Positions 3 to 19,237 of a stretch of DNA of 64,000 nucleotides are shown here, piece after piece. Under the pieces are notes generated by a model that worked only from the letters and a program-made list of their open reading frames with translations, had not been told where the DNA came from and ran no database searches. The position numbers were made by a program, and so were the translations under genes. Origin of the DNA: Candidatus Omnitrophota bacterium (GTDB taxonomy: Bacteria > Omnitrophota > Gorgyraeia > Tantalellales > Tantalellaceae); NCBI GenBank assembly GCA_043813915.1, contig JBDRKO010000026.1, positions 66,236 through 130,235 of the forward strand. Direction: 5' to 3'. How positions within the stretch are numbered: the first letter of the stretch is position 1; each line of letters begins with the position of its first letter.

Positions 3-1460
3 ATGATGTATAGAGATTTGAGAGGAATAAAAATATACGCGCCCGAAGAATTCTTTCCTTCCGAGAGAGCGGTAGCACAGTTGGAAAGGATCAGCCGCGA
101 TGAACGGGTAGAAAAACCTGTTATAGGCCTGGTGGATATACATGACAAAAAGGATAATGATTTTCCGACAGGCGTTGTCGTAGCGTCACGCAAATACATT
201 TTTCCTCAGCTTGTCGTTTCGGGTCCGAACTGCGGTATGCGGATGATGTCGCTTCCGCTTTCGGCGGGTGATATGAAAGATGGCGACGTGGACAGGCTTT
301 TCCGGGGGTTTTCACGGGATATTCATCTGAATTCTTTTTTCGGAAGCGCTCTTTCCGAGGAAGATATCATGGGTATCATGAGACGGGGCGCAGGCTGGAT
401 AAAATATAGATTTCCGGACGCCGAAGACGAGATAGGACATATCGAGTCCGGCGGGAACGCTTTCGGAAGCAACTTGCCGGATGACCGCTTGATACGCAGG
501 GCTATCCCGAAAAGTATAAGGGAACTTTCGAAATACAGGATGGGGATACTCGGCAAGGGGAACCATTTTCTTGAACTTCAGGAAGTGGAAGAAGTATTCG
601 ATCAGCAGAAAGCGGAGCATATGGGTCTCAGAAGAGGAGGATTATATCTTTTTATGCATTCGGGTTCAGGCGGACTCGGCGCTATGGCAGGCAATATTTA
701 TACTCCGAGAAGCATATCTTCCAGAGGAAAAAAAATGAGCGCGTATGTGGCCGCGGAATGGTTCAGGTCCATGTTCGATCCTGTGAGACGAAGATATATA
801 AAGAAAGTCGTTGATCATATAATTAACGGAAAAAAAGGATTATTCGGCCTTGAAGCGGGCTCCGAAGAGGCAGAACTTTATCTCACGGCTATAAGGGCTT
901 CAGCTAATTTTGCTTACGCGAACAGGGCGTTCATAAGCAGGAACATAAGAAGATCAGCCTCGGAAAGCCTGGGGATCGAGCCGAAGGAGATAAAGACACT
1001 TTACGATCTTTCCCATATGTCTATAGAGAAGGAGACGTACGGAGACGGCGCCGTATGGGTGCACCGTACAGGCGGGGTCAGAGCACTGCCGCCCGGTCTT
1101 TTGCCCGAGGGGAGCGTCTTCAAGGAAACGGGCACACCGGTCTTTCTGCCGGGTTCTATGGGAAGCGCTACATACATCGGTGTTGCGACAGAAAAAAATA
1201 AAGAGACATTCTATTCGGTCAGCCACGGTACGGGACGCCTGCCCGAAGATAAAATAAAGGCAAGAGCGGAGAACAGGGAAGAGCTTGTAAAATATCTGAA
1301 GGAAAGGTCGATCACTTTATATAAAGGAGAGCAAAAACGGATCGTTAAACAAGACCCGCGGTGTTTTAAGGACGTAGACAAAGCCGCGGGATATCTTGAG
1401 GACAGCCGATTTCTTAAAAAAGTCGCTAAAATGAGGCCTATAGCCGTATTGAAAGGATAG
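3..1460 (+). CDS. rtcB: RtcB-family RNA ligase (RNA-splicing ligase); N-terminus may be clipped by window edge
   Basis: SGPNCGMRMM resembles the RtcB metal-binding GVDIGCGM motif; C-terminal SHGTGR resembles RtcB HGAGR; length ~485 aa like archaeal-type RtcB. Confidence 0.6.
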   Translation: MMYRDLRGIKIYAPEEFFPSERAVAQLERISRDERVEKPVIGLVDIHDKKDNDFPTGVVVASRKYIFPQLVVSGPNCGMRMMSLPLSAGDMKDGDVDRLFRGFSRDIHLNSFFGSALSEEDIMGIMRRGAGWIKYRFPDAEDEIGHIESGGNAFGSNLPDDRLIRRAIPKSIRELSKYRMGILGKGNHFLELQEVEEVFDQQKAEHMGLRRGGLYLFMHSGSGGLGAMAGNIYTPRSISSRGKKMSAYVAAEWFRSMFDPVRRRYIKKVVDHIINGKKGLFGLEAGSEEAELYLTAIRASANFAYANRAFISRNIRRSASESLGIEPKEIKTLYDLSHMSIEKETYGDGAVWVHRTGGVRALPPGLLPEGSVFKETGTPVFLPGSMGSATYIGVATEKNKETFYSVSHGTGRLPEDKIKARAENREELVKYLKERSITLYKGEQKRIVKQDPRCFKDVDKAAGYLEDSRFLKKVAKMRPIAVLKG

Positions 1461-1466
1461 TGAAAT

Positions 1467-3065
1467 ATGAGCAAAAGATCTTTGTATATATGGGTGTTCG
1501 TGTTTTTCGCGTGCATATACTCGTTTTTCTCTATCGGCCATTATGGGGGAGACGGGTACGAGGATTACCTCACGGCCGAAAGCCTCGTTCTTGACGGAAA
1601 TACCGCGTTATATGACAGGCCCGATGATCCCGATGAATTGGAATACAAGACGGGGGCGGGCATAAAAGGCAAGGACGGCAGAATATATTCTTCAGGAAGG
1701 AAGTTGGGCGTTCCGATCCTTATCGCCCCTCTTTACGGAGCGGGTCATCTCGTGTCTTACGTTTTTAAACAGGCGCCCCATGATCATATAACGATGATGT
1801 TCGCTTCCTTCTATAATCCTCTGGTAACGGCCGCCGGTGTTCTTCTCGTTTTGATGATATCCATACATCTCGGGTTTAAACGCAGACTTCTTGTGGTTGT
1901 CGCGTTTTTATACGGCCTCACGACCATGACGATGGTCTATACAAGGACGGGGTTCGCGGATCCTACCCTGGTGGTATTCCTGCTTTTAACCGCGTATTTT
2001 CTGATAACCTATTCCAAAAATCCCAGGATGGTGTATCTGGCTTGGGCGTCCCTATCCATGGTCTATTGCGTGCTTACGAAGGTCAACGGGCTGATATTCC
2101 TCCCATGCTTTATCGTATATCTTATGTGGGTAAGCTGGGAAAAGGGTCAAACTGTTTCAGAGAGATTGAAACCCGTTCTATTTTTCGTTATCCTTACGTC
2201 TTTGCTGACAGCGTGCGCATTGAAATTGGAAAGTATGACCTTCGGCGGTATTTCCAGCTTGGACAGGGCGCGTGCGGCGGGAGGCGCGATACGTATTCTG
2301 GAGGCCGATCATTTTCTGAAAGGGGTTTATTATTATCTGTTCAGCCCCGGTAAGGGGTTTTTGATATACAACATTACGCTTATACCGGCTTTTTTCGCGG
2401 TAAAAAAGATTTTCAAATTACGGAATAAGGAGGCGATACTGTTCTTCCTTATTTTTATCGTCAATCTTGTTTTCTATGCCAAATCGTTCAGGCGCGGTTC
2501 GCTTTTTTCCTGGGGGCCGAGATATCTTCTTCCTTCGGTGCCTTTTATGTCGTTCCTTGTCGGATATTTTCTGGAAGACGCGAAAAGCGTTTTTAAAAAG
2601 ACCGTTATGTGGCTGCTTTCGCTGACAGGTTTTGCGATAATGCTGCCGTGCATGATGGTCAATCAGTCAAAGTTCTATTTTTTTGTAGTGGAAAAACTGA
2701 AACTGGACGAATACTTGATAAACTTTATCCCCGATCTTTCGCCGATAAAAGGAGCATGGTCGATGCTCATATCACGGCTTGCTTATGATCTTGGCGGTGC
2801 GGAACTGCCGTTCGTGTTCGATCCGGATTACAGGCTTGTCGGTGATCCCGTTACTTATCTTATGGAGGGCTATAACTATCTGGATCTGTGGTCCTTAAAG
2901 GTGATACAGCTCGCGCCTGCTTTCGGTCCCTATGTAAACGCTGTTCTGGGGATACTGATATTATCGGCATTCGTGGCTTTATATAAGATATACAGAAACA
3001 GGGATGCCGTATTTGCTTGCGAGGCGCCTAAAGAGGATCGATATGTTAAAAGAATTCGGCCCTGA
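1467..3065 (+). CDS. polytopic membrane glycosyltransferase, GT-C fold (ArnT / PMT / GT39-GT83-like)
   Basis: About 12 predicted TM helices, N-terminal loop with acidic motif (GGDGYEDY), large C-terminal soluble domain; start ATG follows the RtcB stop with an SD-like aaaggat. Confidence 0.5.
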   Translation: MSKRSLYIWVFVFFACIYSFFSIGHYGGDGYEDYLTAESLVLDGNTALYDRPDDPDELEYKTGAGIKGKDGRIYSSGRKLGVPILIAPLYGAGHLVSYVFKQAPHDHITMMFASFYNPLVTAAGVLLVLMISIHLGFKRRLLVVVAFLYGLTTMTMVYTRTGFADPTLVVFLLLTAYFLITYSKNPRMVYLAWASLSMVYCVLTKVNGLIFLPCFIVYLMWVSWEKGQTVSERLKPVLFFVILTSLLTACALKLESMTFGGISSLDRARAAGGAIRILEADHFLKGVYYYLFSPGKGFLIYNITLIPAFFAVKKIFKLRNKEAILFFLIFIVNLVFYAKSFRRGSLFSWGPRYLLPSVPFMSFLVGYFLEDAKSVFKKTVMWLLSLTGFAIMLPCMMVNQSKFYFFVVEKLKLDEYLINFIPDLSPIKGAWSMLISRLAYDLGGAELPFVFDPDYRLVGDPVTYLMEGYNYLDLWSLKVIQLAPAFGPYVNAVLGILILSAFVALYKIYRNRDAVFACEAPKEDRYVKRIRP

Positions 3066-4035
3066 TAATTTTAAAGTAAGAGAGAAAGTGGCGGACAGAC
3101 CGTCGATGGGAAGATACGCTTCTTCCTGCGCGTGGGGGTCCGACATTTTTCATCTCAGGATAGATGCCGATGAGTATACGGAAGCGTCTTTCAGAACATA
3201 TTATCCCGTATTTGAGAAGCACGCCAAAGCGTTAACGGTATTTTTTAACGCTTGTTCTTTCAGAAACTCTGAAAAAGAGGTACTGAAGTGCCGGGACTTG
3301 GGGATAGATATACAGTCGCATGCTTTCTATCATTATACGTATAATGACTATGCCAGCAACAGACATAATATACATCTGGCAAAAGAGTTCTTTGATTCAC
3401 TCGGGGTAGAGACAATAGGTTTTGCCGCGCCGACGGGAAAATGGAACGCGTCTCTTATGAAAGCGTTGGAGGACGAGGGATACAAATACTCATCGGATTT
3501 TTCTTATGATTACATGGCTTTCCCGAGTTATCCTTTGCTGTGCCGCAGGCCTTCACGTGTGATGGAGATACCTATCTTTCCTGTTGCCCCGGAACTTTTT
3601 TTTCAGGGTACGCCTTGCGAAGAGGAAATTGTTCTCGAATATTATAAGAACGCTATAGACGGACTTATAGCGGGAGGGTTACCGGTAATAATTTATGCGC
3701 ATACCAGCCCGGCAATACGTGAGGTGCCTTCATTGCTTGAGGAAATAGCGGACTACGCGGTCGGAAAGAAAGGTCTGAGACCGGTCTCTATGACCGGCCT
3801 TTTTCATATGACGGACGGGAAAGCTCCTGTCCGGGAAAATGTATCCCTGCCCGGAGAGACGGGAAAAATGCCCATGGAAAACTTTTCAGGCAGACGTGTC
3901 CGGCCTGGGATCTTCTCTGCCGTGAAAGACGCCCTGAAAGAAGCTATTGATTTTGAGAGGATAACGCCGGAAGAAGAACTTAAATGCGGGCATGTTAAAA
4001 AAGCGCTTAAACTGCTCGCCAGAAAAATGACTTGA
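3043..4035 (+). CDS. polysaccharide deacetylase-like (CE4 family) protein
   Basis: HLRIDADE...SHAFYHYTY...GFAAPTG pattern typical of NodB-type deacetylase Asp/His metal site; start chosen at ATG 3043 with agagga SD (ORF track start 3004 also possible). Confidence 0.45.
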   Translation: MLKEFGPDNFKVREKVADRPSMGRYASSCAWGSDIFHLRIDADEYTEASFRTYYPVFEKHAKALTVFFNACSFRNSEKEVLKCRDLGIDIQSHAFYHYTYNDYASNRHNIHLAKEFFDSLGVETIGFAAPTGKWNASLMKALEDEGYKYSSDFSYDYMAFPSYPLLCRRPSRVMEIPIFPVAPELFFQGTPCEEEIVLEYYKNAIDGLIAGGLPVIIYAHTSPAIREVPSLLEEIADYAVGKKGLRPVSMTGLFHMTDGKAPVRENVSLPGETGKMPMENFSGRRVRPGIFSAVKDALKEAIDFERITPEEELKCGHVKKALKLLARKMT

Positions 4036-4060: not shown

Positions 4061-5947
4061 ATGGAACATGATATAAACAAACAACTTATAGACATGGCCG
4101 GAAAAAAGAACGGATTGGCCGATGCGCGCTCATTTTTTCTGGACCAGGCCGAGAACGGGTATAACATGCTTCTGTGGAAATGTTATCTTGCGCGGGTCGC
4201 GAACCGCAAAGAAGGGATCAATAAGACCGAAAGGATAGCTATCCTGGGATCATCTAACGTAACGCCGCTTAAAGATAAACTTAAAGTAATGTTCCACGCT
4301 CATGGAGTAGATACGGAATTCTATATGGGGGAATATAATAACTGGTATCAGGAACTTCTGTTCGATGAAAGGTCCGGTCTGTATGGGTTAGGCCCGTCGA
4401 TCGTGGTGATGATATTGAGTTTTCAGGATATTTTTCAGGACTCATATGAGAGCTTACTGTCTTTTTCTCAAGTGAAAGTGAACAGGATCCTGAAAAGAAC
4501 GTTGGGCCATATTATAGACGCGGTTAATTATTTTTGCTCAAAATTCCCTGAAAGCGCCGTATATCTCTCTGTAATACCTCCGGTAGAAGACCCTTCCAGC
4601 TACGCATATTGGCCGGGTACTGTGCATAAAAGCCGCGGATATTTTCATAAATTTTGCGGGACAATTGCGGATTATTGGAAAGAAAACGATAATATTTTCA
4701 TGCTGAATACCGGAAACATTATTCAAGGATATAAAAAAGAACAGATAGCGGATAAAAGGTATTGGTATTTGGGGAGAATAAGATACACGGACCTGTTCTT
4801 CTCGGAACTATCAAGAGAGCTAGTTAAAGTGTACAATATGGCGCATTCCATTCCCAAAAAATGTCTTATTGTTGATCTGGATGGAACGCTTTGGGGCGGG
4901 ATCATAGGAGAAGACGGACGCAGTAATATTATCCTGGGGCAGGACGGTTTGGGGCAGGCATATCAGGATTTCCAGAGGGAGATACTTAAATTATACGAAA
5001 AGGGCATAATACTCGCGATATGCAGTAAAAATAATGAATCTGATGTGGATATATTATTACATATGGATAAAAGAATGTTGCTGAAGGATGAACATTTCAC
5101 ATCAAAACGGATAAACTGGAATGATAAGGCCTCCAACATAGAGGAAATAGCGAAAGAGATAAACATAGGGCTTGATTCCATAGTATTCCTCGACGATAAT
5201 CCTGTTGAGAGAGAATGGGTCAGGGAAAACCTTCCTGAAGTGACCGTTCCTGAGATGCCGGAAGATCCCTCTAGGTATGCGGAATTCCTGAAGAATTCAA
5301 AATGGTTTAATTCGTATAATACAACAAAGGAAGATCGTATAAGGAACATTACTTATAAAGCTGTTGCGAAAAGCAAAAAACTTAAAGAAAAGTCGAAAAA
5401 CATTAATAGTTTTATTAGAGATCTCAAACAACAGGTTATCATAGAAGATGTTAATACATCTACTATTTCAAGAGCCGTACAATTAAGCCAAAAGACCAAT
5501 CAGTTTAAGATGAATCATAAAAGATACGAATTGTCTGAAATGAAAAATATGATCAAGGATAAGGACTATAAGATATACACACTCAGTCTAAAGGATTGTT
5601 TTTGTGATTATGGCATAATCGGACTTATGATCATGAAGAACGATCATATTGATGATTTCATCTTAAGCTGCCGAGTTATAGGTAGAAAGATAGAAGATGT
5701 AATTATAGATTGGCTGAAGAAAAGGTTAAAGAAGGAGGGCTACAGTCACATATATGGTAGATATAGAACCAGTACTAAAAATTCTGTCTGCAAAGATGTA
5801 TATAAAGAGAATGGGTTTATATCAAAGGAAGAGGGTGTGCTGAATACCGGAGGTGCTAATACAATTAACAAATATAATTTGAAGGGTAAGGTTGGATTCT
5901 CATCTTTCAAGGATATTATTAAGGTGAAGTATGAAGGGAAAAGATGA
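4061..5947 (+). CDS. FkbH-like HAD-superfamily (subfamily IIIC) domain protein with C-terminal GNAT-like domain
   Basis: LIVDLDGTLWGG HAD motif I, followed by ICSKNNESD and FLDDNP motifs characteristic of FkbH/HAD-IIIC; stop TGA 5945-5947 abuts the ACP gene. Confidence 0.6.
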   Translation: MEHDINKQLIDMAGKKNGLADARSFFLDQAENGYNMLLWKCYLARVANRKEGINKTERIAILGSSNVTPLKDKLKVMFHAHGVDTEFYMGEYNNWYQELLFDERSGLYGLGPSIVVMILSFQDIFQDSYESLLSFSQVKVNRILKRTLGHIIDAVNYFCSKFPESAVYLSVIPPVEDPSSYAYWPGTVHKSRGYFHKFCGTIADYWKENDNIFMLNTGNIIQGYKKEQIADKRYWYLGRIRYTDLFFSELSRELVKVYNMAHSIPKKCLIVDLDGTLWGGIIGEDGRSNIILGQDGLGQAYQDFQREILKLYEKGIILAICSKNNESDVDILLHMDKRMLLKDEHFTSKRINWNDKASNIEEIAKEINIGLDSIVFLDDNPVEREWVRENLPEVTVPEMPEDPSRYAEFLKNSKWFNSYNTTKEDRIRNITYKAVAKSKKLKEKSKNINSFIRDLKQQVIIEDVNTSTISRAVQLSQKTNQFKMNHKRYELSEMKNMIKDKDYKIYTLSLKDCFCDYGIIGLMIMKNDHIDDFILSCRVIGRKIEDVIIDWLKKRLKKEGYSHIYGRYRTSTKNSVCKDVYKENGFISKEEGVLNTGGANTINKYNLKGKVGFSSFKDIIKVKYEGKR

Positions 5948-6173
5948 AATGAAAGAAAAACTTAAGTTCATAATAGCTAACTGCTGCAGTATAGACACTT
6001 CCGCGGTAGATGATAACGCTAAGGTGAATGAGACACCTAACTGGGATTCTTTCGGGCATCTTCAGATAATGTCATGCGTCGAACAGGAGTTCGGTGTCTC
6101 CTTTGATACCAGGACCATCTCGGCTCTGCTTTCATATAAGGATATACTGGGGTATCTGAAGGAGAACACTTAG
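5931..6173 (+). CDS. acyl carrier protein
   Basis: About 75-80 aa acidic protein with NWDSFGHLQIM, a DSL-like phosphopantetheine attachment motif; alternative start ATG 5949 right after the FkbH stop. Confidence 0.6.
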   Translation: MKGKDEMKEKLKFIIANCCSIDTSAVDDNAKVNETPNWDSFGHLQIMSCVEQEFGVSFDTRTISALLSYKDILGYLKENT

Positions 6174-6194
6174 ACCGGACCGGTATCATATATC

Positions 6195-7316
6195 ATGGAG
6201 AGAAATATAAACATACGAAACTATAGAGAGGAAGATACACCGGCCGTGGTGGGACTTCTTTCCGGATTTTATGACAACGTAAAGACGGAGGAGGACTGGA
6301 GGCGTCTTTACCTCGATAATCCGGCGGGAAGCGCGGTAATATCACTTGCTGAAGAGACGTCCGGGAAGAAACTGATAGGCCATTACTCGGTGATAAAGAT
6401 GGAGATGTCCGTTTTCGGCGAGAAACGGTTTTGCGGAAAAGGGGAAGGTGAGATATTCGATCTTCCGTTCTTAATAGGACTTTTGAAAAGAGGTGTAAAA
6501 ATAGAGCCTTCTTCGGAAAAGCTTATCAGGCACACTATGAACGCGGCGCTTGCCTGTGGGCTAGAGATGGTTTGTACCAATCCGAACGATCTGGCTCTCA
6601 AGTCTCATATCGCGGCGGGATATGACAGTTTGCGTCAGGAATTCAGCATATTTGTTTTGCCGCTAAAAAGCCGATATCTTTCTCATGTATTAACGAAAAA
6701 AAAGAACTTGGCCGGCACGGCATGTTTCATAAGTTCTTTAGTAGCACCACTTATACACTTTCTCTATTCCGTAAAAGTGTTATTCTTCGGGAGAACCGGG
6801 GTATGTCTTGACCCTATCGGGTCTTTCGACAGCCGTACGGATATCTTCGCGGAAGCATTAGGGAAGGATAAGCATGTTATCGCCATAGACCGAAGCGCGG
6901 GCCATCTTAATTGGCGTTTCGGAAAGGAAGAATATAAAAAATATGTTATACGGGACGGCGGTAAGGATATAGGATATGCCGTTTTGCATGTTTTCATCAA
7001 CCCTAACGGTTTTAAAGAGGCGTGCCTTGTGGATTATCTTTTTCTGCCGGAGGGGTGGGGAAAGTTTAAAGGTACTATTGTCAAAATAACGGAAGAAGCA
7101 AAGAAGTATGATAGCGATCTTCTGCGTGTTAACTATATGCATGACAGGAAAGAAACGTTCGGACTGGCAGGTGTATTAAAGGAACTTTTTTTTACGAAGA
7201 GGTCCGACAAAAGGAACATCACTGTCTTTCTGTCTTCACAGCTCGAAGATGAAAAAGAAAAAATATTGGATATAAAAAACTGGTTCTTTACGGATCTTTA
7301 TTTCGAGGGATATTAA
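6195..7316 (+). CDS. GNAT / FemAB-like acyltransferase family protein
   Basis: About 370 aa, size and position typical of FemAB/BioF2-like GNAT acyltransferases that accompany FkbH-ACP pairs in glycan loci; no sharp motif identified. Confidence 0.4.
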   Translation: MERNINIRNYREEDTPAVVGLLSGFYDNVKTEEDWRRLYLDNPAGSAVISLAEETSGKKLIGHYSVIKMEMSVFGEKRFCGKGEGEIFDLPFLIGLLKRGVKIEPSSEKLIRHTMNAALACGLEMVCTNPNDLALKSHIAAGYDSLRQEFSIFVLPLKSRYLSHVLTKKKNLAGTACFISSLVAPLIHFLYSVKVLFFGRTGVCLDPIGSFDSRTDIFAEALGKDKHVIAIDRSAGHLNWRFGKEEYKKYVIRDGGKDIGYAVLHVFINPNGFKEACLVDYLFLPEGWGKFKGTIVKITEEAKKYDSDLLRVNYMHDRKETFGLAGVLKELFFTKRSDKRNITVFLSSQLEDEKEKILDIKNWFFTDLYFEGY

Positions 7317-9110
7317 GTGCAGATAAAAAAAGTGAACATAATTATCCTGAATTATAACGGGAAGGACCTTCTGGCGAAATATCTTCCTTCTGTAATAGAA
7401 GCGGGTGATCTGTCCCGGCATGAATGCAAGGTGTCGGTTATCGATAATAAAAGTTCTGACGGTTCCGTAGAGTTCCTGCGTTCCGATTTTCCCGGGGTCG
7501 ATATTTTTGTCGCGAAAGAAAACAGGGTGCTCTGTTCATTTAACGAAGTCGTACGTTCCGTGACGGAAGAGATAGTTATATTCCTGAACAACGATATCGG
7601 ACTGGACCCCGGTTTTGTAGACCCGCTTATCAGCCATTTCGGTAATGATGGGATTCTTTTTGCGGCGCCGAAAGAATGTTCTCCCGACGGCGAATTCCGT
7701 GGCGGGGTCAATCGCGGTGTTTTTAAATTCGGGTTTTTCAGGAACCTTGTCAAAGAGGGGTCCGAAGATACCTGCCAATATTCCATGGCGGTCCATGGCG
7801 GTGCGTTCGACCGTAAAAAATTCAATGAACTCGGCGGGTATGACGATATGTATCTTCCGGGTTATGTTGAGGACCTTGACCTGTGTTACCGGGGCTGGAA
7901 ACGCGGTTGGTACGGGTTATATGAACCGCGGAGCGTTATGTTCCATGAAGGATGCGCAAGTTTTAACAAAACATACGGGCATGACAGGAAACTTACGATA
8001 GTGCACAGGAACACTTTTCTTTTCTTCTGGAAGAACGTCACCTCTTTCCGCCAGATATTTCTGCATGTTCTTTTTATTGTCCCGCGGTTGGTCCTGTCTC
8101 TGGTGACGGGACGTCTATCATTGGTGTTGGGGTTTTTTCAGGCTCTCAAACGTATCGGCCGGGCTTTAAAGGGGAGACGGGATGTGCGGGGGACATTTAC
8201 CTTAACTGATGAAGAAGTGCTGCGCCGGATAGAAAGCGGCTTTACGGGAATTGAAGAGGAGAAGATCACGCAGGAAGAAGTCCTGTCGGCCAACGTTGAA
8301 TATCATAACAAGATCGCGGCGCGTTACGAAAAGGACGCGTCGACGCGTCTTTTGTTCGAAGAGAGCCCGAATTCTGGACGGCGCATAGAGGGTGTGATGA
8401 AATATCTGGAAGAAGAAACTGCGGGCGAAAAATTCCTTGATATAGGATGCGGGACAGGTAATGTCCTGAGCCGGGCGGCTAAGCGTTTCAAAGAAGCCGT
8501 AGGAATAGACGCCTCGGCTGAAATGCTCAAGATATCCGAAGCAAAGGGCCTGAATGTCGTGCAGGGCGACGCTCTCGCTCTTCCTTGGCCTGCCGGTACG
8601 TTTGACGCCGTAAGCGCTTTTTCGGTTGTGCATCATTTTCTGCGTCCCGGGGATATTTTGAAAGAGGCATACAGGGTACTTAAGGACGGCGGATACCTTT
8701 ATACCGATTGGGATCCTAACGCAAAGGCCGCTTCGCTTTTCGACGCCGGCAGCCAATCAAAACTTTTTACCTTTATTCACGGATTTTATATGTCCGTGAA
8801 GAGAAAAGTCCGCAGTTTGCCTGAAAACGTCAGAAGCGAGTCGGATGAGCTCGAACAGCTCGCGAATATAGCAGAGTACCATCATAAAAAAGGGCTGGAT
8901 GCGGGAAAGATCTCCTCAGAACTCGAGCACATAGGATTTAAAGACGTAAAAGTGTATTTCCATAACAATACGGACGATCTTTTCCGCCCGGAACGCCTGA
9001 ACCCGTGGGAGATGACCAAAATAACCGCAAGAAGAGCCCTGAACTATGATCTAGGCGTTCCGCGCCCCGAAAATATCTGCTCTCAATTCGCTATCTTAGC
9101 CAGAAAATGA
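7317..9110 (+). CDS. bifunctional glycosyltransferase family 2 (N-term) / class I SAM-dependent methyltransferase (C-term)
   Basis: GTG start immediately after GNAT stop; N-term ILNYNGKDLL...VIDNKSSDGS (GT2) with DxD-like region; C-term LDIGCGTGNV (SAM motif I) and DAVSAFSVVHH (motif II/III). Confidence 0.6.
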   Translation: MQIKKVNIIILNYNGKDLLAKYLPSVIEAGDLSRHECKVSVIDNKSSDGSVEFLRSDFPGVDIFVAKENRVLCSFNEVVRSVTEEIVIFLNNDIGLDPGFVDPLISHFGNDGILFAAPKECSPDGEFRGGVNRGVFKFGFFRNLVKEGSEDTCQYSMAVHGGAFDRKKFNELGGYDDMYLPGYVEDLDLCYRGWKRGWYGLYEPRSVMFHEGCASFNKTYGHDRKLTIVHRNTFLFFWKNVTSFRQIFLHVLFIVPRLVLSLVTGRLSLVLGFFQALKRIGRALKGRRDVRGTFTLTDEEVLRRIESGFTGIEEEKITQEEVLSANVEYHNKIAARYEKDASTRLLFEESPNSGRRIEGVMKYLEEETAGEKFLDIGCGTGNVLSRAAKRFKEAVGIDASAEMLKISEAKGLNVVQGDALALPWPAGTFDAVSAFSVVHHFLRPGDILKEAYRVLKDGGYLYTDWDPNAKAASLFDAGSQSKLFTFIHGFYMSVKRKVRSLPENVRSESDELEQLANIAEYHHKKGLDAGKISSELEHIGFKDVKVYFHNNTDDLFRPERLNPWEMTKITARRALNYDLGVPRPENICSQFAILARK

Positions 9111-9148
9111 AAGATCGTTTTTACGGACGTGACGGCTACCGGGATCGG

Positions 9149-10378
9149 TCATGCCATGACCGATCCGCCGCAGACAAGCATCTGGCTTCCCACAACGTAA
9201 TCCGTGTAAGATGAAGCCATCAGAAGCACGACGTTCGCCGTGTCGATCGGTTCCGCGTTCCTTTTAAGGGGAACATCCATAGCCATCTTCTTTTTGAACC
9301 ATTCGGGTATATGCGCTCCGAGATCGGTGTCCGTGAAACCGGGGGAGACGACATTGAAGAAGATGTTCTTAGAGGCGTATTCCACGGCAAGCGAACGTGT
9401 AAGGCCCAGAAGAGCGGTTTTAGCGGTCACATATTTCGTGAAGCCGGCCGGCGGGGCGCTGTTGGTATACACTGTGGTGATATTGACGACTTTACCGTAG
9501 CCGTTCTTTTCCATTACGGGAAGGACAGCTTTCGTGCAGTTGAAAGCGCCTTTTACCGCTACATCAATATCTTTTTGAATATCTTCCCATTCGAGTTTTT
9601 CAAATTCAACGGGTATAGCATCACTCATAGCGTTATTTACGAGGATGTCGATCTTACCGAACTCCTTCAACGCTTTTGATATCATTTTGCTGACTTCGTC
9701 TTTATCTGACACATCGGCTTTAAGGGCGACGGCCCTTTTTTTTGAAGATACAATATCTTTCACGACACGATCGGCATCTTTTTTGCCGAGCCTGTAATTG
9801 ACTATCACGTCCGCTCCGTGATGCGCGAAAAGTTTTGCTGTGGCCTCTCCGATCCCGCGGCTTGCGCCGGTTACAAGAACGACCTTACCCTTAAAATCCA
9901 GATTCACGGCTTTTTTTTTAAGTTCCTTCATTGTTACACCTCTTTTTGCGGGTGGATTCACCAGGACACCTACGGTTCCGGTGATAACGGTCTCGTTTTT
10001 CTGGTTGGTTATGGCGATAACTATATCAATTTTACCCGAAATGTCATTTTTTGATCTTACGTTACCGGTTATCATGAGGATATCACCGGCCTTGACGGGT
10101 TTAAGATATTTAGCGGAATGATCAAGGATAAGGGCGTTCTCCCCGGGAAGGTACATACCGACAAGTGTAGATACGTAAGAATAGGCTAAAAGACCGTGCG
10201 CTACACGGCTCCGGAAACGCGTTTTCCTGGCGAATTCTTCGTTTACATGAATAGGGCTGTGGTCACCGGTCAATTCCGCGAAATGTGATATGGTCTTTTC
10301 GGTGATCCCGGCCTTGAAAGAGGCCTTTTGCCCTACGGTGATCTCGCCTATAGTATACTTTTTAGCGGCTTTATTCAT
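9149..10378 (-). CDS. MaoC-like (R)-hydratase/dehydratase hot-dog domain fused to short-chain dehydrogenase/reductase (FabG-like)
   Basis: N-terminal HSPIHVNEEFARKTRF...VAHG hot-dog motif; C-terminal VTGASRGIG Rossmann motif, NNA, and YxxxK (YVTAK) SDR catalytic motif; the only minus-strand gene in the window. Confidence 0.65.
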   Translation of the reverse strand: MNKAAKKYTIGEITVGQKASFKAGITEKTISHFAELTGDHSPIHVNEEFARKTRFRSRVAHGLLAYSYVSTLVGMYLPGENALILDHSAKYLKPVKAGDILMITGNVRSKNDISGKIDIVIAITNQKNETVITGTVGVLVNPPAKRGVTMKELKKKAVNLDFKGKVVLVTGASRGIGEATAKLFAHHGADVIVNYRLGKKDADRVVKDIVSSKKRAVALKADVSDKDEVSKMISKALKEFGKIDILVNNAMSDAIPVEFEKLEWEDIQKDIDVAVKGAFNCTKAVLPVMEKNGYGKVVNITTVYTNSAPPAGFTKYVTAKTALLGLTRSLAVEYASKNIFFNVVSPGFTDTDLGAHIPEWFKKKMAMDVPLKRNAEPIDTANVVLLMASSYTDYVVGSQMLVCGGSVMA

Positions 10379-10579
10379 ATGGACTTATGGTACGCTATCC
10401 CGCATACATTGTCAAGCGCTGCAAGGTTTTACCCGGTATGTTTACATCCGATCCGGAGGGGATATCACGGGATACAGGATCGGACAAGGTTCTACGCTAA
10501 AAGAGCAGTATTTACTTGCCCTATAAGGTATTTATATTATAATATCAGTCTGACACACACTTTACAAAAGGAGTTGGAT

Positions 10580-12006: not shown

Positions 12007-12236
12007 AGAGTGTCAAAGTGTCAGAGTATCAGAGTGTCAGGTTGGACCGATGCGGGAAGAAGGGACAGAGGGAAGAAAGACGAAGGAAGAAGGACGAAGG
12101 AAGAAAGACGCGGGCGGACGTGTAATGTTTTATGTGTGATGTGTAAGGACGAGATTGCTTCCCCCCGTCGCTTTGCTCCGCAAAGCGGAGCAGCGGGGGT
12201 CGCAATGACGGGTGGGAGGAAAGGTTGAAAGGGCGA

Positions 12237-13499
12237 ATGATTCATAAAACAGAGAATGTATTAAGCGAGGAAATAATCCTGGCAAAAAACTGGATATTGA
12301 ATTCGGGGATACAGAATACAGACGGCAAAAATCAAGGGGGGTTCAATTCGTGGTTTGATGTAGGATCCGGGGGGTATCCGTATGTTTATTCCGAGATAAC
12401 GGGATACGGGATAACAACGCTTTTGTATTTGAAACTATTTTTTGACGGTCAATTTTTAGATCGAGCGAGGTATGCGGCGGATTGGCTCATAAAAAATGCC
12501 GTCAGTGAAAACGGCGGGGTGAGAACAAGGGACTATCAGCAGGATATGTATGAGTCGGAGGCGTATTCTTTTGAAAGCGGTAACATATATACTTTTGACA
12601 GCGGAATGGTCCTATACGGAATGATCAGTCTATACAGGGACTGCAAGGATAATAAATATCTCGAAATATCAAAAAAAATAGCTTCATTTTTGATGAACCA
12701 TATGCGGAAGGAAGATGGGTTTTTCTACGCGTCATACGATCCCGCTACTAAAGAAAAAGCGGATTCTCCGTGGAAATGGTCTACGCAGAGCGGTAGTTAC
12801 CACGCGAAATTAGCTTTGGGATTTACCGATCTATATGAGGTAACCGGGGAAGAGGTCTATAAGGACGCCGCGCTATCTCTTTGCGGCAAAGCAATGGACT
12901 TGCAGGATCCTTCCGGAAGATTTATAACATCCCGCGCTGATAACAGTACTCATATGCATCCTCATGCGTATTCAGCCGAAGGGCTTTTGTACACCGGTAT
13001 ACATTTTGAAGAGGACGATCTTATTGATTCCGCCGAGAGAGCGGTTAAATGGTCTTTAGATAGCCAAAATCCGGACGGAGGGATACCCAAAAAACATAAC
13101 GGGCAGGACTTTATAAATTTGTACAGGGCCGATATACTTGCTCAGATACTCAGGTTAGGGGCTCTTTTAAAAAGTTTGGGAAGATTGGATGAAACATATT
13201 CATCTAAATTGGAGAAATTACGCAATAGCTTGCTTTCTTTTCAGTATAAAGAAAATGATCGGCAAAAAGGCGGATTCTATTATGGGTTCACCTTGGACGG
13301 AAAGAAGAAAGAACATATCAATTCATGGTGCAGTATGTTCGCTTTACAAGCTCTTATCATGTACGAGGAAAGCCTAGGGAGAGACTTAAGGAAAAGTGTC
13401 AGAGTGTCCCCGTACCAGTCTCTTCGTTCCGGTACAGGACAGGCGGCGTGTCAGAGTGTCAAGAAAGATAACACTAACATAATGGAGTATTTTGTATAA
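12237..13499 (+). CDS. hypothetical protein, repeated Gly-rich/aromatic segments suggestive of an (alpha/alpha)6-toroid sugar-modifying fold
   Basis: Periodic motifs ENGGVRTRDY / EDGFFYASYDP / PSGRFITSRAD / PDGGIPKKHNG; last ~25 codons are encoded by a GTGTCAGAG repeat module so the true C-terminus is uncertain. Confidence 0.3.
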   Translation: MIHKTENVLSEEIILAKNWILNSGIQNTDGKNQGGFNSWFDVGSGGYPYVYSEITGYGITTLLYLKLFFDGQFLDRARYAADWLIKNAVSENGGVRTRDYQQDMYESEAYSFESGNIYTFDSGMVLYGMISLYRDCKDNKYLEISKKIASFLMNHMRKEDGFFYASYDPATKEKADSPWKWSTQSGSYHAKLALGFTDLYEVTGEEVYKDAALSLCGKAMDLQDPSGRFITSRADNSTHMHPHAYSAEGLLYTGIHFEEDDLIDSAERAVKWSLDSQNPDGGIPKKHNGQDFINLYRADILAQILRLGALLKSLGRLDETYSSKLEKLRNSLLSFQYKENDRQKGGFYYGFTLDGKKKEHINSWCSMFALQALIMYEESLGRDLRKSVRVSPYQSLRSGTGQAACQSVKKDNTNIMEYFV

Positions 13500-14621
13500 A
13501 TGAAGAGAAAAATAGCTTTTATTTTTGGAACAAGACCCGAAATAATAAAAATGAGCCCCATAATCCGGCAATGTATCAAAAATAAAATTCCTTTTTTTAT
13601 GGTGCATACCGGACAACATTATTCGCACAGTATGTCTGATCTTTTTCTTGAAGAGCTTAAATTACCGGAACCGGATTATAACCTCAAGATCAGATCGAAA
13701 GCTCCGCATCGGCAGGGGGAACATACCGGGAAAATGATGGTGAAGCTCGATGAAATATTACTTAAGGAAATGCCTTCGGTAGTATTGGTTCAGGGCGATA
13801 CGAATTCGGCTTTAGCGGGAGCATTAACTGCTTCTAAAATATCGACTACCAAAGCATTCACCGGGTTTGAGATAAAGGTGGGACATGTAGAAGCCGGGCT
13901 TAGGAGTTATGATAGGACTATGCCCGAAGAAATAAATAGGGTCATTATTGATCATTTATCCGATTATCTTTTTGTTCCCTCAGTTGATGCTAAAAAGATA
14001 GTTCTTTCGGAAGGGATAAAGAAAGAAAAAATATGGGTAACCGGTAACACTATAGTAGATGCTGCATATCATGCGAGAGACTTAAATGCAAACACGAGGG
14101 ACAAGAGGCGATGGACGAAGGGCGAAGGATATATTTTGTTGACACTTCATCGTCAGGAGAACGTTGATGATAAAATTAGACTTAAGAAGATCCTGCAGGG
14201 GGTAGAACAAGTTTCAAAAAAACACAAATTGACCGTAATATTTCCTATTCATCCCAGAACAATGAATAAAATAGAAATATTTAAGATCGCTATGCCAAGA
14301 TCTGTGGATATAGTTAAACCTAAAGGGTTTTTAGATTTTATCCGGTTGGAATCAAGAGCGGATCTTATTTTGACAGATTCCGGCGGGTTACAGGAAGAAG
14401 CATGCGCTCTTAGGATCCCTTGTGTGACGCTTAGGAATTCCACGGAAAGACCCGAAACTGTGGATGCAGGGGCAAATATGGTAGCGGGAATAGAACCGGA
14501 GAATATAGTACGGTGCGCTGATAGGATGCTTTCCGCGAAAAAGAACTGGGGAAATCCTTTTGGCAGCGGGAAAGCGGCTATTAAGATACTGGATATATTG
14601 AAAAAGGATAATAACATATGA
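13500..14621 (+). CDS. wecB: UDP-N-acetylglucosamine 2-epimerase (non-hydrolysing)
   Basis: IAFIFGTRPEIIKMSPII N-terminus, HTGQHYS, HVEAGLRS motifs typical of WecB/MnaA. Confidence 0.8.
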   Translation: MKRKIAFIFGTRPEIIKMSPIIRQCIKNKIPFFMVHTGQHYSHSMSDLFLEELKLPEPDYNLKIRSKAPHRQGEHTGKMMVKLDEILLKEMPSVVLVQGDTNSALAGALTASKISTTKAFTGFEIKVGHVEAGLRSYDRTMPEEINRVIIDHLSDYLFVPSVDAKKIVLSEGIKKEKIWVTGNTIVDAAYHARDLNANTRDKRRWTKGEGYILLTLHRQENVDDKIRLKKILQGVEQVSKKHKLTVIFPIHPRTMNKIEIFKIAMPRSVDIVKPKGFLDFIRLESRADLILTDSGGLQEEACALRIPCVTLRNSTERPETVDAGANMVAGIEPENIVRCADRMLSAKKNWGNPFGSGKAAIKILDILKKDNNI

Positions 14622-18811: not shown

Positions 18812-19237
18812 GGGAGACGAAAGACGAGGGAAGAAGGACGAGAGACGAGGGAAGAGGGACGACTGTTAAGTATCAAGGAGAATAGTTTAAAAGTTAAAGT
18901 TCTGTGGACACCTTTCCCGGGGTAGTGTAAACCCGACCCTCAAGATGTCCCCAGAATATATTTTTACTGGTTACAGGTAACAGACAAAGGGCGTAAAGCC
19001 TGCCTGTCCTGCCTGCGGCAGGTAAACCGGCAGGCAGGGAGTCACCGCGCTTCGCGCTAGAGTCATCATTCGCTACGCTCATTAGGGTCAGAGAGTCAGA
19101 GGGGAAGAAAGACGAAGGAAGAGAGACGCGGGAAGAGTCGCGGAGAGGAGCACGGTTAACTTGCATTTATATTGAATCTATGATAAACTATACTTTATCA
19201 TAGATTTGTTAAATTGTTGAAAAATGGAGTGTGTTTT

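Follow-up and report, generated by a model that had tools for sequence, protein, structure and literature searches.

A putative deacetylation–reacylation unit with a dedicated acyl carrier protein in an Omnitrophota glycan locus

Organisation of the locus

The window, that is the whole stretch of 64,000 nucleotides of Candidatus Omnitrophota DNA analysed here, carries close to its start a run of forward-strand genes: a soluble CE4-type (Polysacc_deac_1) deacetylase (3004..4035), an FkbH-like loader of 628 aa (4061..5947), a stand-alone acyl carrier protein (ACP; 5949..6173, with the longest ORF starting at 5931), a tandem-GNAT acyltransferase of 373 aa (6195..7316) and a GT2-methyltransferase fusion of 597 aa (7317..9110). 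A MaoC-SDR fusion follows on the reverse strand (9149..10378). A first-pass annotation had described the last five genes as a single carrier-protein unit. All five ORFs are present in the window and their order is conserved; the unit begins one gene earlier, however, with the deacetylase gene, which belongs to it. The adjacency is not a matter of chance: the order is conserved, with 46–54% protein identity, on at least eight other Omnitrophota contigs.

Upstream of the deacetylase lies a membrane glycosyltransferase of the GT-C type (PMT_2/ArnT-like; 1467..3065, forward strand) with about 12 hydrophobic segments and weak matches to Pfam PMT/PMT_2. Its orthologues occupy the same place, just upstream of the deacetylase, in seven related loci (L001, L004, L007, L010, L014, L015 and L016), and it may use the modified sugar in the periplasm. 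At the other end, a divergent intergenic region (10379..10579) separates the MaoC-SDR gene from an NDP-sugar 4,6-dehydratase-like gene. It contains one promoter-like site on each strand (minus, 10415-10387; plus, 10516-10543), each a consensus match only, with 10 of 12 positions matching. The dehydratase-like gene has a GGAG followed by ATG at 10580; its homologues are 322-323 aa long, and this ATG, not TTG 10328, is likely to be the true start. The locus also encodes WecB, a GT9 heptosyltransferase, two or three GT-C (ArnT/PMT-like) enzymes and a NeuD/VioB-type N-acetyltransferase.

The FkbH-like loader and its carrier protein

The assignment of the 628-aa protein to the FkbH family holds. 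It scores 288.2 bits against the NCBIfam FkbH domain model TIGR01686 (cut-off 146.65) and 67.8 bits against the HAD-IIIC model TIGR01681 (cut-off 35.75). Three domains can be distinguished: an SGNH-like N-terminal domain, a HAD-IIIC phosphatase and a C-terminal domain of GNAT fold that contains Cys537. The catalytic residues are intact, namely D272/D274/T276 of the HAD Asp motif, S322-K323, D378-D379 and the invariant S536-C537-R538, and these motifs are shared with a short FkbH homologue from a Bacillus cereus NRPS/PKS cluster. From the alignment and from work on OzmB, we take Cys537 to be the counterpart of the cysteine that forms the acyl-enzyme in characterised FkbH proteins. No substrate test of a long-form (SGNH-HAD-GNAT) FkbH-like protein was found in the literature.

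On its own, the window ACP gives no Pfam PP-binding match, and its NCBIfam ACP matches are below threshold (27.7 bits). A profile of its orthologues (A3) nevertheless matches solved ACPs in the PDB (2ehs, E=8e-11). The phosphopantetheine serine of these (D-S-L) aligns with an invariant W-D-S in the orthologues, so that the 80-aa ORF has the modifiable serine expected of a carrier; NCBI labels an identical protein ‘acyl carrier protein’. The start used by the orthologues is the second Met (5949), which lies two bases past the FkbH stop codon; the description of the two genes as abutting is therefore correct. Each of the eight lineages examined outside Omnitrophota likewise has a small ORF directly 3′ of FkbH. 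Its product passes the Pfam PP-binding cut-off in four of these loci (L005, L006, L020 and L024), and in a fifth (L021) there is a precomputed PP-binding match.

The MaoC-SDR fusion and the nature of the acyl group

Pfam places MaoC_dehydratas at aa 19-118 (65.5 bits) and adh_short at aa 165-359 (172.3 bits). The former domain has the hydratase-2 motif F-x2-L-T-G-D38-H-S-P-I-H43, the latter TGASRGIG and Y-x3-K. By sequence, the protein is thus an R-hydratase/dehydratase joined to a ketoreductase-type SDR, with catalytic motifs intact. The fusion is real, but it is common and not the rarity it was first thought to be: among the relatives listed, 120 of 120 (out of 7351 matches) carry both domains. 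FkbH-ACP has MaoC-SDR homologues, fused or split, beside it in L005, L006, L020, L023 and L024. In the reciprocal direction, a KSB1 MaoC-SDR homologue picked blind to its context turned out to directly follow an FkbH-ACP pair.

FkbH and ACP yield glyceryl-ACP (PMC7489565), and it is proposed that the MaoC-SDR protein turns this into lactyl-ACP. The pair might instead catalyse another reaction, such as an oxidation of the kind carried out by FkbK. An unlikely but substantive alternative keeps the carrier-protein logic and changes the acyl group to glyceroyl, O-methylated glyceroyl of the Campylobacter dimethylglyceric-acid type, or an oxidised hydroxymalonyl-type unit; the MaoC-SDR protein would then epimerise the unit (by dehydration-rehydration or an oxidation-reduction cycle) or oxidise C3. 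Pseudaminic acids with an N-glyceroyl or a di-O-methylglyceroyl group have been described, the genes responsible for the former being unassigned (PMC5378307). Several cassettes (among them L018 and L022) are devoid of MaoC and SDR and have a glyoxalase/VOC-family protein instead, so that a pathway can end at glyceryl-ACP. A methyltransferase gene repeatedly adjoins FkbH-ACP cassettes, and the methoxymalonyl pathway has a dehydrogenase that oxidises glyceryl-ACP (PMC7489565). Against this, FkbK/FkbI-type dehydrogenases (3-hydroxyacyl-CoA and acyl-CoA dehydrogenase families) were not found in the locus, and a hot-dog dehydratase with a ketoreductase-type SDR and FkbH-ACP is exactly the domain set of loading modules reported to form D-lactyl-ACP (PMC7901079, citing Zhang 2011). 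N-(R)-lactyl pseudaminic acid does occur in a capsule (PMC7281560).

Deacetylase, tandem GNAT and GT2-methyltransferase: the acceptor

The deacetylase scores 32.7 bits against Pfam PF01522 (cut-off 23.1) and contains the D-A-D and H-x3-H metal/base motifs; a hydrophobicity check revealed no hydrophobic segment. In all related loci that extend far enough, it directly precedes the tandem GNAT or FkbH-ACP-GNAT. It is proposed to expose an amine for re-acylation.

The acyltransferase is a GNAT protein, as first described, although ‘FemAB-like’ is a poor label; it is rather Eis/NMT-like. Its two domains are linked by a conserved hydrophobic helix (about aa 172-198), a K-G-E-G motif is invariant, and its identity to Eis/NMT-type GNATs (the Pfam Acetyltransf_9 group) is about 10-12%. 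Proteins of that type normally use CoA thioesters; the window protein is proposed to transfer the acyl group from ACP to a sugar amine.

The GT2-methyltransferase fusion is genuine. Both Pfam domains exceed their cut-offs (Glycos_transf_2, aa 8-129, 40.1 bits against 23.3; Methyltransf_11, aa 374-462, 85.4 bits against 21.2). The GT2 part extends from aa 1 to about 290, with a hydrophobic segment at about 245-275, and the class-I SAM methyltransferase spans aa ~355-597. The identical 597-aa protein occurs on two contigs under two NCBI accessions, and a 597-aa JGI protein represents its 90%-identity cluster, which argues against an assembly artefact. In all related loci a GT2 of 309-325 aa, without a fusion partner, is encoded after the GNAT. 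At 26% identity, the window methyltransferase is no orthologue of the methyltransferases found beside other cassettes. Neither the GT2 nor the deacetylase matches any characterised subfamily, and acylation may take place on the nucleotide, the lipid or the polymer.

An improbable alternative sends the acyl group to a sugar hydroxyl, lipid A/core, an aminolipid or a protein, with the deacetylase acting on a different substrate. The GT9 and GT-C enzymes, together with an LPG_synthase_TM protein in relatives, make lipid A/core or lipid decoration possible, and among the structural neighbours of the GNAT are N-acyltransferases acting on proteins or small molecules, as well as the aminoacyl-lipid synthase domain. 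A de-N-acetylated amino sugar is favoured by the constant adjacency of deacetylase and GNAT, which are fused in one distant GNAT relative (P0260, Polysacc_deac_1 plus tandem GNAT), and by the fusion of GT2 to GNAT in another (P0213). In other phyla, the cassette accompanies families of amino-sugar N-acyltransferases (Antibiotic_NAT and hexapeptide) in nonulosonic-acid or DegT-containing sugar loci.

Conservation in Omnitrophota and recurrence in other phyla

Related Omnitrophota loci share a constant core of deacetylase, tandem GNAT and GT2. FkbH, ACP and MaoC-SDR are co-conserved across these loci, as the first-pass annotation implied, and they also co-vary. All are present in L001, L004, L007, L010 and L016, among others; all are jointly absent from L015, which keeps deacetylase-GNAT-GT2. 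In L014 their place is taken by an AMP-ligase (AMP-binding enzyme), a carrier of 99 aa with an L-D-S-I carrier motif, and an SDR. The donor cassette is exchangeable. Members without it form a separate GNAT clade; its presence or absence follows this single split, which amounts to a single evolutionary event or at most two.

FkbH-ACP recurs far outside the phylum, in the bacterial lineages Saccharibacteria, KSB1, Firmicutes, Planctomycetota and Acidobacteriota and in the archaeal lineages Thorarchaeota and Woesearchaeota; its companions there are MaoC, SDR or both, a methyltransferase, and either an N-acyltransferase or a deacetylase. Saccharibacteria L005 has Antibiotic_NAT-FkbH-ACP-MaoC-SDR beside PseB-like and NeuB genes; L006 has MT-GNAT-MaoC/SDR fusion-FkbH-ACP beside a CMP-sugar-type cytidylyltransferase; Ruminiclostridium L020 has MaoC-SDR-MT-FkbH-ACP-GT2; and in KSB1 L024, FkbH-ACP-MaoC/SDR precedes a 345-aa weak GNAT match. 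Woesearchaeota L023 shows ACPS-FkbH-ACP-MaoC-Antibiotic_NAT, Thorarchaeota L018/L019 show ACPS-FkbH-ACP with a hexapeptide transferase and CE4, and Pirellulales L021 shows FkbH-ACP-372 aa-CE4.

These surroundings bear on a further reading, in which the cassette makes a diffusible metabolite or serves a polyketide/fatty-acid-type pathway, its position in a glycan locus being incidental. Experimentally characterised FkbH proteins do all act in polyketide or non-ribosomal pathways. Yet no ketosynthase, PKS or NRPS gene is present in the first 27 kb of the window or in the flanks of the eight independent non-Omnitrophota lineages, seven of which have sugar-pathway genes there. Moreover, FkbH-ACP is inserted between the deacetylase and GNAT genes, in conserved order within a glycan operon. 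Such a reading is very improbable.

Proposed pathway

Intact motifs and co-conservation support the core of the original reading, that a glycerate- or hydroxyacyl-derived substituent is built on ACP and moved to a sugar. The fuller interpretation, a unit that deacetylates a sugar and then re-acylates it from a donor built on a dedicated carrier protein, is one on which our confidence is evenly balanced. Within it, the product is most likely a lactyl group (possibly methylated) derived from glyceryl-ACP and attached to a de-N-acetylated amino sugar; a glycolytic three-carbon acid would most likely replace the acetyl group on a cell-surface sugar.

Going by family membership, the FkbH-like enzyme would react with 1,3-bisphosphoglycerate to give phosphoglyceryl-S-Cys537, its HAD domain would remove the phosphate, and the glyceryl unit would pass to holo-ACP. 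By analogy with DH-KR-FkbH-ACP loading modules, MaoC would then dehydrate glyceryl-ACP to enol-pyruvoyl/pyruvoyl-ACP, which the SDR would reduce to lactyl-ACP (2-hydroxypropanoyl-ACP). In the weakest step, the GT2-fused methyltransferase may O-methylate the hydroxyacyl group or the sugar. Gene order and the fusion proteins suggest that the GT2 places an N-acetyl-hexosamine on a membrane-bound intermediate and that the soluble CE4 enzyme strips its N-acetyl group. The membrane-associated tandem GNAT would then move the hydroxyacyl group from ACP to the freed amine. Since WecB is encoded in the locus, the hexosamine probably stems from UDP-GlcNAc or ManNAc; given the NeuD/VioB-type N-acetyltransferase and the 4,6-dehydratase-like gene, an amino-deoxy sugar synthesised elsewhere could instead supply the amine. 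No experimental study or biochemical characterisation of such an FkbH-ACP sugar-acylation cassette was found in the literature.

Comparison with known systems

Polyketide FkbH/ACP systems (methoxymalonyl-ACP in FK520, bafilomycin and tetromadurin; tetronates; the zwittermicin-type B. cereus cluster) share with the window the FkbH domain (TIGR01686), the HAD and S-C-R motifs and an adjoining dedicated stand-alone ACP. The locus differs in its glycan context, without FkbK/FkbI-type dehydrogenases, ketosynthase or PKS, and in its long-form protein with the extra SGNH-like domain; short homologues have about 355-367 aa (359 in the B. cereus NRPS/PKS cluster, 367 in bafilomycin BafAIV, 355 in Saccharibacteria L005).

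The bryostatin protein BryA has a DH-KR-FkbH-ACP loading module and a lactyl starter. Such trans-AT PKS modules, including that of FR901464, also group dehydratase, ketoreductase, FkbH and ACP, with a reported net conversion of 1,3-bisphosphoglycerate and ACP to D-lactyl-ACP (PMC7901079). In the window, however, the activities are free-standing, a MaoC hot-dog protein and a FabG-like SDR stand in place of PKS-type DH and KR domains, and the product is proposed to go to an acyltransferase, not a ketosynthase.

The proposed logic of GlcNAc-type de-N-acetylation followed by N-acylation from a dedicated acyl-ACP resembles that of Nod factor and lipid A synthesis. Nod factor involves NodC (GT2), NodB (CE4 deacetylase), NodA (N-acyltransferase), NodF/NodE (special acyl-ACP) and NodS (methyltransferase); LpxC/LpxD likewise de-N-acetylate and then N-acylate from acyl-ACP. 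Like the Nod system, the window combines GT2, CE4 and a SAM methyltransferase in one unit. As a tandem GNAT, however, its transferase is not homologous to NodA or LpxD; in place of a fatty acid, its acyl group would be a glycolysis-derived C3 hydroxy acid; and its GT2 has no NodC/chitin-synthase family match in Pfam or NCBIfam, the best NCBIfam score being to the single-addition glycosyltransferase model MftF, far below cut-off.

Among surface-glycan systems, the flagellin genes of Campylobacter jejuni include an FkbH-domain gene, cj1302, in a region that also has FabH-like and extra ACP genes and is not known to have MaoC-SDR. A glycerate-derived, O-methylated acyl group occurs there on an amino sugar (dimethylglyceric-acid pseudaminic acid), the acceptor being a nonulosonic acid. 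A strain with a cj1302 (fkbH) pseudogene has an altered flagellar glycan profile, and the authors of that study considered the absence of DMGA-Pse5Ac7Am from it (PMC7099621). In the O-antigen locus of Vibrio cholerae O1, the dedicated genes VC0248-VC0252 (WbeK-O) likewise serve to form a short hydroxy-acyl group and attach it to a sugar amine (perosamine), but FkbH is missing, the acyl group is 3-deoxy-L-glycero-tetronyl and the amine is supplied by an aminotransferase instead of by deacetylation. The ACP and the AMP-ligase-type enzyme encoded by these tetronate genes resemble the alternative cassette of L014. Finally, beyond its low identity, inter-domain helix and K-G-E-G motif, the window GNAT is set apart from Eis/N-myristoyltransferase-type tandem GNATs by its genomic partners, which suggest that it takes the acyl group from ACP and passes it to a sugar.

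Genomic Context and Gene Order

The window derives from a Candidatus Omnitrophota genome. Its first ~27 kb form a surface-glycan locus with GT-C/PMT_2, GT4, GT2 and GT9 transferases, WecB, a 4,6-dehydratase-like gene, a NeuD/VioB-type acetyltransferase and a Bac_transf initiating transferase; housekeeping genes (priA, gap-pgk-tpiA and arg genes) follow. Within this locus lie, each where the first-pass annotation had placed it, five ORFs read at that stage as a carrier-protein tailoring module: an FkbH-like protein (4061–5947), an ACP (5949–6173), a GNAT acyltransferase (6195–7316), a GT2-methyltransferase fusion (7317–9110) and, on the minus strand, a MaoC–SDR fusion (9149–10378). The unit reaches beyond the coordinates first noted and includes a CE4 deacetylase (PF01522; 3004–4035). 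At the level of domains, it belongs to the FkbH-domain, ACP, GNAT, MaoC, SDR and GT2 families.

All related Omnitrophota loci that are long enough to show it share one gene order (brackets mark genes missing from some loci): GT-C, deacetylase, (FkbH, ACP), tandem GNAT, GT2, (MaoC–SDR on the opposite strand), 4,6-dehydratase-like gene, hexapeptide transferase, an unknown α/α-type protein, WecB and GT4. For the dehydratase-like gene, ATG 10580 is the most likely start, which leaves a 200-bp divergent region; this contains promoter-like sites on both strands, matched by consensus alone.

Several other genes of the locus deserve mention. An RtcB RNA-ligase homologue (3–1460, plus strand; PF01139, 244.6 bits), odd in a sugar operon, heads the glycan locus and is kept at 27–53% identity in related loci (L001 3737–5239, L004 2223–3719, L007 3873–5306 and L015 2241–3737); in these relatives it is followed by thymidylate-kinase-like, B12-radical-SAM and LPG_synthase_TM genes. 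The gene that separates the hexapeptide transferase from WecB (12225–13499, plus strand) is conserved; it encodes a 424-aa protein with no more than faint GH88/GH47-type Pfam matches and none in NCBIfam. Its homologue beside the Woesearchaeota FkbH cassette (L023 3804–4985, minus strand; tblastn 24% identity, E = 2.5e-14) suggests that it may be a further recurrent partner. At 19214–20464 (plus strand), an AAA_14 + DUF4143 ATPase gene breaks the run of glycosyltransferases, followed by a 144-aa ORF without a family match.

The FkbH-like Loader and Its Carrier Protein

The FkbH-like protein scores 288.2 bits against TIGR01686 (cut-off 146.65) and 67.8 bits against the HAD-IIIC model (cut-off 35.75). 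Its HAD motifs (D272-L-D274-G-T276, S322-K323 and D378-D379) consist of residues that are invariant across 26 homologues, bar D378 with its conservation of at least 90%; the motifs are also present in the FkbH homologue of a B. cereus NRPS/PKS cluster. Likewise invariant is S536-C537-R538, which sits in a GNAT-fold domain and contains what we take to be the acylated Cys of characterised FkbH enzymes, C537. The original identification as an FkbH-like protein is thus borne out, and the catalytic residues are in place. Loading of glyceryl from 1,3-bisphosphoglycerate onto ACP by FkbH-type enzymes has reportedly emerged from work on OzmB and tetronates. Formation of glyceryl-ACP by FkbH and ACP is described for polyketide pathways (PMC7489565). 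By analogy with this established chemistry, the loader would form glyceryl-S-ACP from 1,3-bisphosphoglycerate.

The window ACP, an 80-aa ORF, by itself finds no Pfam match (E < 0.01), and its top NCBIfam score is 27.7 bits against a cut-off of 71. A profile of its orthologues matches solved ACPs at E = 8e-11; their invariant W-D-S aligns to the D-S-L of Aquifex ACP 2ehs, which carries the phosphopantetheine Ser at the start of helix 2. A stand-alone ACP with its carrier Ser, as proposed at first, is therefore present. The orthologues start at the second Met (5949), 2 bases past the FkbH stop codon.

Two known roles of such loaders come into question. One is the methoxymalonyl-ACP pathway (FkbG–K), of which FkbH and ACP are parts; because FkbK-type 3-hydroxyacyl-CoA dehydrogenases and FkbI-type acyl-CoA dehydrogenases are absent from the ORFs of 1–26.7 kb and from the related loci, the window unit does not represent this pathway. 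Nor is it a PKS loading module, as there is no KS to accept the starter: neither KS nor PKS was found in the scanned first ~27 kb of the window or in any of the flanks covered.

The MaoC–SDR Fusion

The MaoC half scores 65.5 bits against PF01575 (cut-off 27) and carries a hydratase-2 motif with the catalytic Asp and His (F-A-E-L-T-G-D38-H-S-P-I-H43). The SDR half (adh_short, 172.3 bits) has the TGASRGIG cofactor motif and the catalytic pair of Y-V-T-A-K (Y-x3-K); at 199 bits against the FabG equivalog TIGR01830, it stays below the cut-off of 297.75 and, judged by sequence, is FabG-like, not FabG. The fusion is real and its motifs are intact, yet it is common and not, as had been supposed, unusual, since 120 of 120 relatives among the matches listed carry both domains.

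Loading modules that combine DH, KR, FkbH and ACP are reported to yield D-lactyl-ACP (PMC7901079). A dehydratase, a ketoreductase, FkbH and ACP are grouped in the window, and likewise in the Saccharibacteria (L005), unclassified bacterial (L006), Ruminiclostridium (L020) and KSB1 (L024) loci.

MaoC–SDR is the sole convincing minus-strand gene of the 64-kb window, nearly all others being on the plus strand, and the G+C content of the FkbH gene (0.382, against 0.454 for the window) is the minimum of the locus. Both features fit insertion of a cassette, yet are not decisive, as the G+C content of WecB (0.401) is low too.

The Tandem GNAT, the Deacetylase and the GT2-Methyltransferase

The 373-aa GNAT ORF is 100% identical to the NCBI entry 'hypothetical protein ABIG55_03640', and its neighbours correspond to MFH1411716–20. 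It comprises two GNAT-fold domains in a single chain (Eis/NMT/Acetyltransf_9-like). The window protein gives no match in a Pfam GNAT family search; distant relatives that a profile search brought up do match Pfam Acetyltransf_9. By an exhaustive profile search, the family branches deeply within a large group, with 2416 representatives at E ≤ 1e-3. An initial description as 'FemAB-like' has to be dropped, as the closest relatives are not FemX/FemA-type aminoacyl-tRNA transferases. Among distant relatives, both GT2 + tandem-GNAT and CE4 + tandem-GNAT fusions occur, the fused partners being the two neighbours of the window GNAT. Scanning metagenome contigs with the GNAT alignment yielded seven loci, every one from the close family.

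A hydrophobic inter-domain helix is found in 22 of 22 members of the tandem-GNAT family, and GT2 too has a hydrophobic segment, unlike the deacetylase, FkbH and MaoC–SDR. The helix and the segment suggest that the last steps take place at the membrane.

The GT2 domain (Glycos_transf_2, 40.1 bits against a cut-off of 23.3) has E-D-L-D as a D-x-D-type motif in its translation. An Arn-like arrangement, with GT2 as ArnC, CE4 as ArnD and GT-C as ArnT, was also considered. The GT-C neighbour offers a loose analogy only, and GT2 and the deacetylase gave no match to ArnC/ArnD or any other subfamily, nor a sequence match in the PDB; this arrangement was rejected.

The fusion of GT2 to a methyltransferase exists as originally described: the identical 597-aa protein is recorded twice at NCBI, under separate accessions and on separate contigs, and its 90%-identity cluster has a 597-aa JGI protein as representative. 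In the related loci, GT2 is always a separate protein of 309–325 aa. In the closest locus, L007, a separate 323-aa Methyltransf_11 gene (13566–14537, plus strand) follows MaoC–SDR and precedes the dehydratase-like gene; the window lacks a methyltransferase gene at that position. Its product is 26% identical to the window methyltransferase domain, which suggests that two lineages gained different methyltransferases at the same cassette. The window domain is only weakly similar to the methyltransferases of the Blastocatellia (L022) and Woesearchaeota (L023) loci. Methyltransferases thus recur, but at these levels of similarity not as a single orthologous member of the cassette.

Core and Cassette within Omnitrophota

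In L016/L017, L001–L004, L007–L010, L012 and L013, FkbH and ACP are present, together with MaoC–SDR wherever the contig extends that far. L015 is otherwise near-identical, but FkbH, ACP and MaoC–SDR are all missing together, even though they normally hold two separate positions on opposite strands. L014 also lacks them and has, just before the deacetylase (L014 3099–5461), an alternative set: a protein of 99 aa that shows the carrier motif L-D-S-I but no Pfam match, a FabG-like SDR and an AMP-binding ligase of 451 aa. This set resembles the tetronate gene set of V. cholerae O1. The GNATs of the cassette-less and alternative-cassette loci form their own clade, with eight diagnostic positions.

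Joint presence or absence points to a constant core (deacetylase, tandem GNAT and GT2) and an exchangeable donor module of carrier genes. Taken by itself, the pattern within the phylum is suggestive only, because it amounts to no more than one or two evolutionary events.

Recurrence in Other Phyla

Eight lineages were examined, all but one of them through FkbH homologues sampled at ~29–38% identity. The loci L005 and L006 are both those obtained by a genome scan with a single FkbH protein, taken as found; the remaining non-Omnitrophota FkbH loci were picked by taxon label and contig extent, blind to context, and one of the eight lineages was added through a reciprocal MaoC–SDR look-up. In all eight, a small ORF lies immediately 3' of FkbH; it reaches the PP-binding cut-off in four, and a fifth has a precomputed PP-binding match. 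PKS/NRPS genes were looked for in the flanks of the eight lineages, and none was found.

The accompanying genes vary. In Saccharibacteria (L005), Antibiotic_NAT, FkbH, ACP, MaoC and SDR precede PseB-like and NeuB genes; the unclassified bacterium (L006) has a methyltransferase, GNAT, a MaoC–SDR fusion, FkbH, ACP, an amidase and a CMP-sugar-type cytidylyltransferase. Ruminiclostridium (L020) combines MaoC, SDR, a methyltransferase, FkbH, ACP and GT2. Pirellulales (L021) has FkbH, ACP, a 372-aa unknown and CE4, the 372-aa protein having no Pfam match and an hhalign probability of 1.5% against the tandem GNAT. The Blastocatellia locus (L022) runs through a hexapeptide transferase, a methyltransferase, a glyoxalase-family protein, FkbH, ACP, a dehydratase, DegT, GT2 and PMT_2. 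Among archaea, Woesearchaeota (L023) has ACPS, FkbH, ACP, MaoC and Antibiotic_NAT, and Thorarchaeota (L018/L019) ACPS, FkbH and ACP, the opposite strand encoding a hexapeptide transferase and CE4. KSB1 (L024) carries the FkbH–ACP pair, a MaoC–SDR homologue and, after it, a 345-aa protein with a weak match to the GNAT profile. In a reciprocal test, the blind-picked KSB1 MaoC–SDR homologue (42% identity) directly follows the FkbH–ACP pair. The co-conservation of the genes, on which the first proposal depended, is thus seen both in the order kept by the related Omnitrophota loci and in the recurrence of the FkbH–ACP cassette in other phyla.

The ACPS (4'-phosphopantetheinyl transferase) gene lies directly upstream of FkbH–ACP in the archaeal loci (L018 6476–6994, L019 6554–6994 and L023 138–503), which suggests that the cassette carries its own carrier-activating enzyme into lineages that, to our knowledge, are mostly without ACP systems. 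In cassettes without MaoC/SDR, a glyoxalase/VOC-family protein adjoins FkbH (L018 10492–10902 and L022 6606–7004; 40% identity between the Thorarchaeota and Blastocatellia proteins). As this family includes acyl-thioester epimerases, these proteins may, speculatively, epimerise glyceryl-ACP. FkbH-like genes also occur on 40 Sinorhizobium plasmid records, all those listed being megaplasmids of ~1.66–1.69 Mb. On S. meliloti 1021 pSymB (622307–641283; L026), a region left unannotated by the plasmid collection, the FkbH match (9001–9977) falls into two pieces on a pair of overlapping ORFs, pointing to a frameshifted copy.

Proposed Mode of Action

The analysis establishes what the parts are, how they fold and which catalytic motifs they keep, and that they go together, and with sugar-pathway genes, in a way that is conserved, co-varies and recurs. 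Which acyl group is made, which sugar accepts it and what the methyltransferase does are inferences. Once glyceryl-ACP is loaded, MaoC would dehydrate it and SDR would reduce the resulting pyruvoyl-ACP to lactyl-ACP, by analogy with the loading modules reported to form D-lactyl-ACP. Gene adjacency and the fusion proteins suggest that the CE4 enzyme would free the amine on a GT2-placed N-acetyl-hexosamine, and that the tandem GNAT would move the acyl group off ACP. Cassette composition suggests the product: glyceroyl from FkbH–ACP alone, lactyl with MaoC and SDR, and O-methylated (methoxy-acyl) forms with a methyltransferase.

Such chemistry is plausible because pseudaminic acids bearing N-(R)-lactyl (PMC7281560), N-glyceroyl (PMC5378307) and dimethylglyceric acid (PMC7099621) groups are known glycan components. 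The genes for these substituents are unassigned or merely hinted at; for N-glyceroyl substitution, a 2017 study of Tannerella described the genetic basis as 'a major challenge' (PMC5378307). In the open-access literature on FkbH with polysaccharide, to which the search was confined, no characterisation of such a system was found.

The central idea, carrier-protein acyl tailoring within a glycan locus, thus draws support from comparative genomics. The finding is real and, for one class of glycan decorations, offers an explanation that can be put directly to the test. A broader reading, possible if more doubtful than probable, is that many phyla share modular N-acyl editing, in which a constant deacetylase and N-acyltransferase are served by interchangeable carrier-protein donor cartridges. 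It would take in candidate phyla as well as Asgard and DPANN archaea with their own phosphopantetheinyl transferase, and an AMP-ligase plus carrier would supply other acids.

Significance and Comparison with Known Systems

Short hydroxy-acyl groups (glyceroyl, lactyl and methylated glyceroyl) borne by amino sugars and nonulosonic acids influence antigenicity, immune evasion and recognition by phages. If the broader reading is true, it would provide the missing genetic basis of the chemically known N-glyceroyl, N-lactyl and dimethylglyceroyl sugars, and a role outside polyketide synthesis for the long-form 'HAD-IIIC family phosphatase' genes, which number in the thousands and have no explanation so far. 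The cassette-composition rule could serve to predict, from a genome, how its glycans are decorated. On the proposed function, a very large FkbH-like family (at least 6778 clusters) would shift from secondary metabolism to cell-surface biology, and dedicated ACP systems would be documented in archaeal lineages.

Among known systems, NodB/NodA/NodF and LpxC/LpxD follow the same deacetylate-then-acylate logic, and the V. cholerae O1 tetronate genes provide a parallel for a dedicated short-acyl cassette in an O-antigen locus. The window unit resembles a hybrid that joins both of these features to FkbH/ACP donor synthesis.
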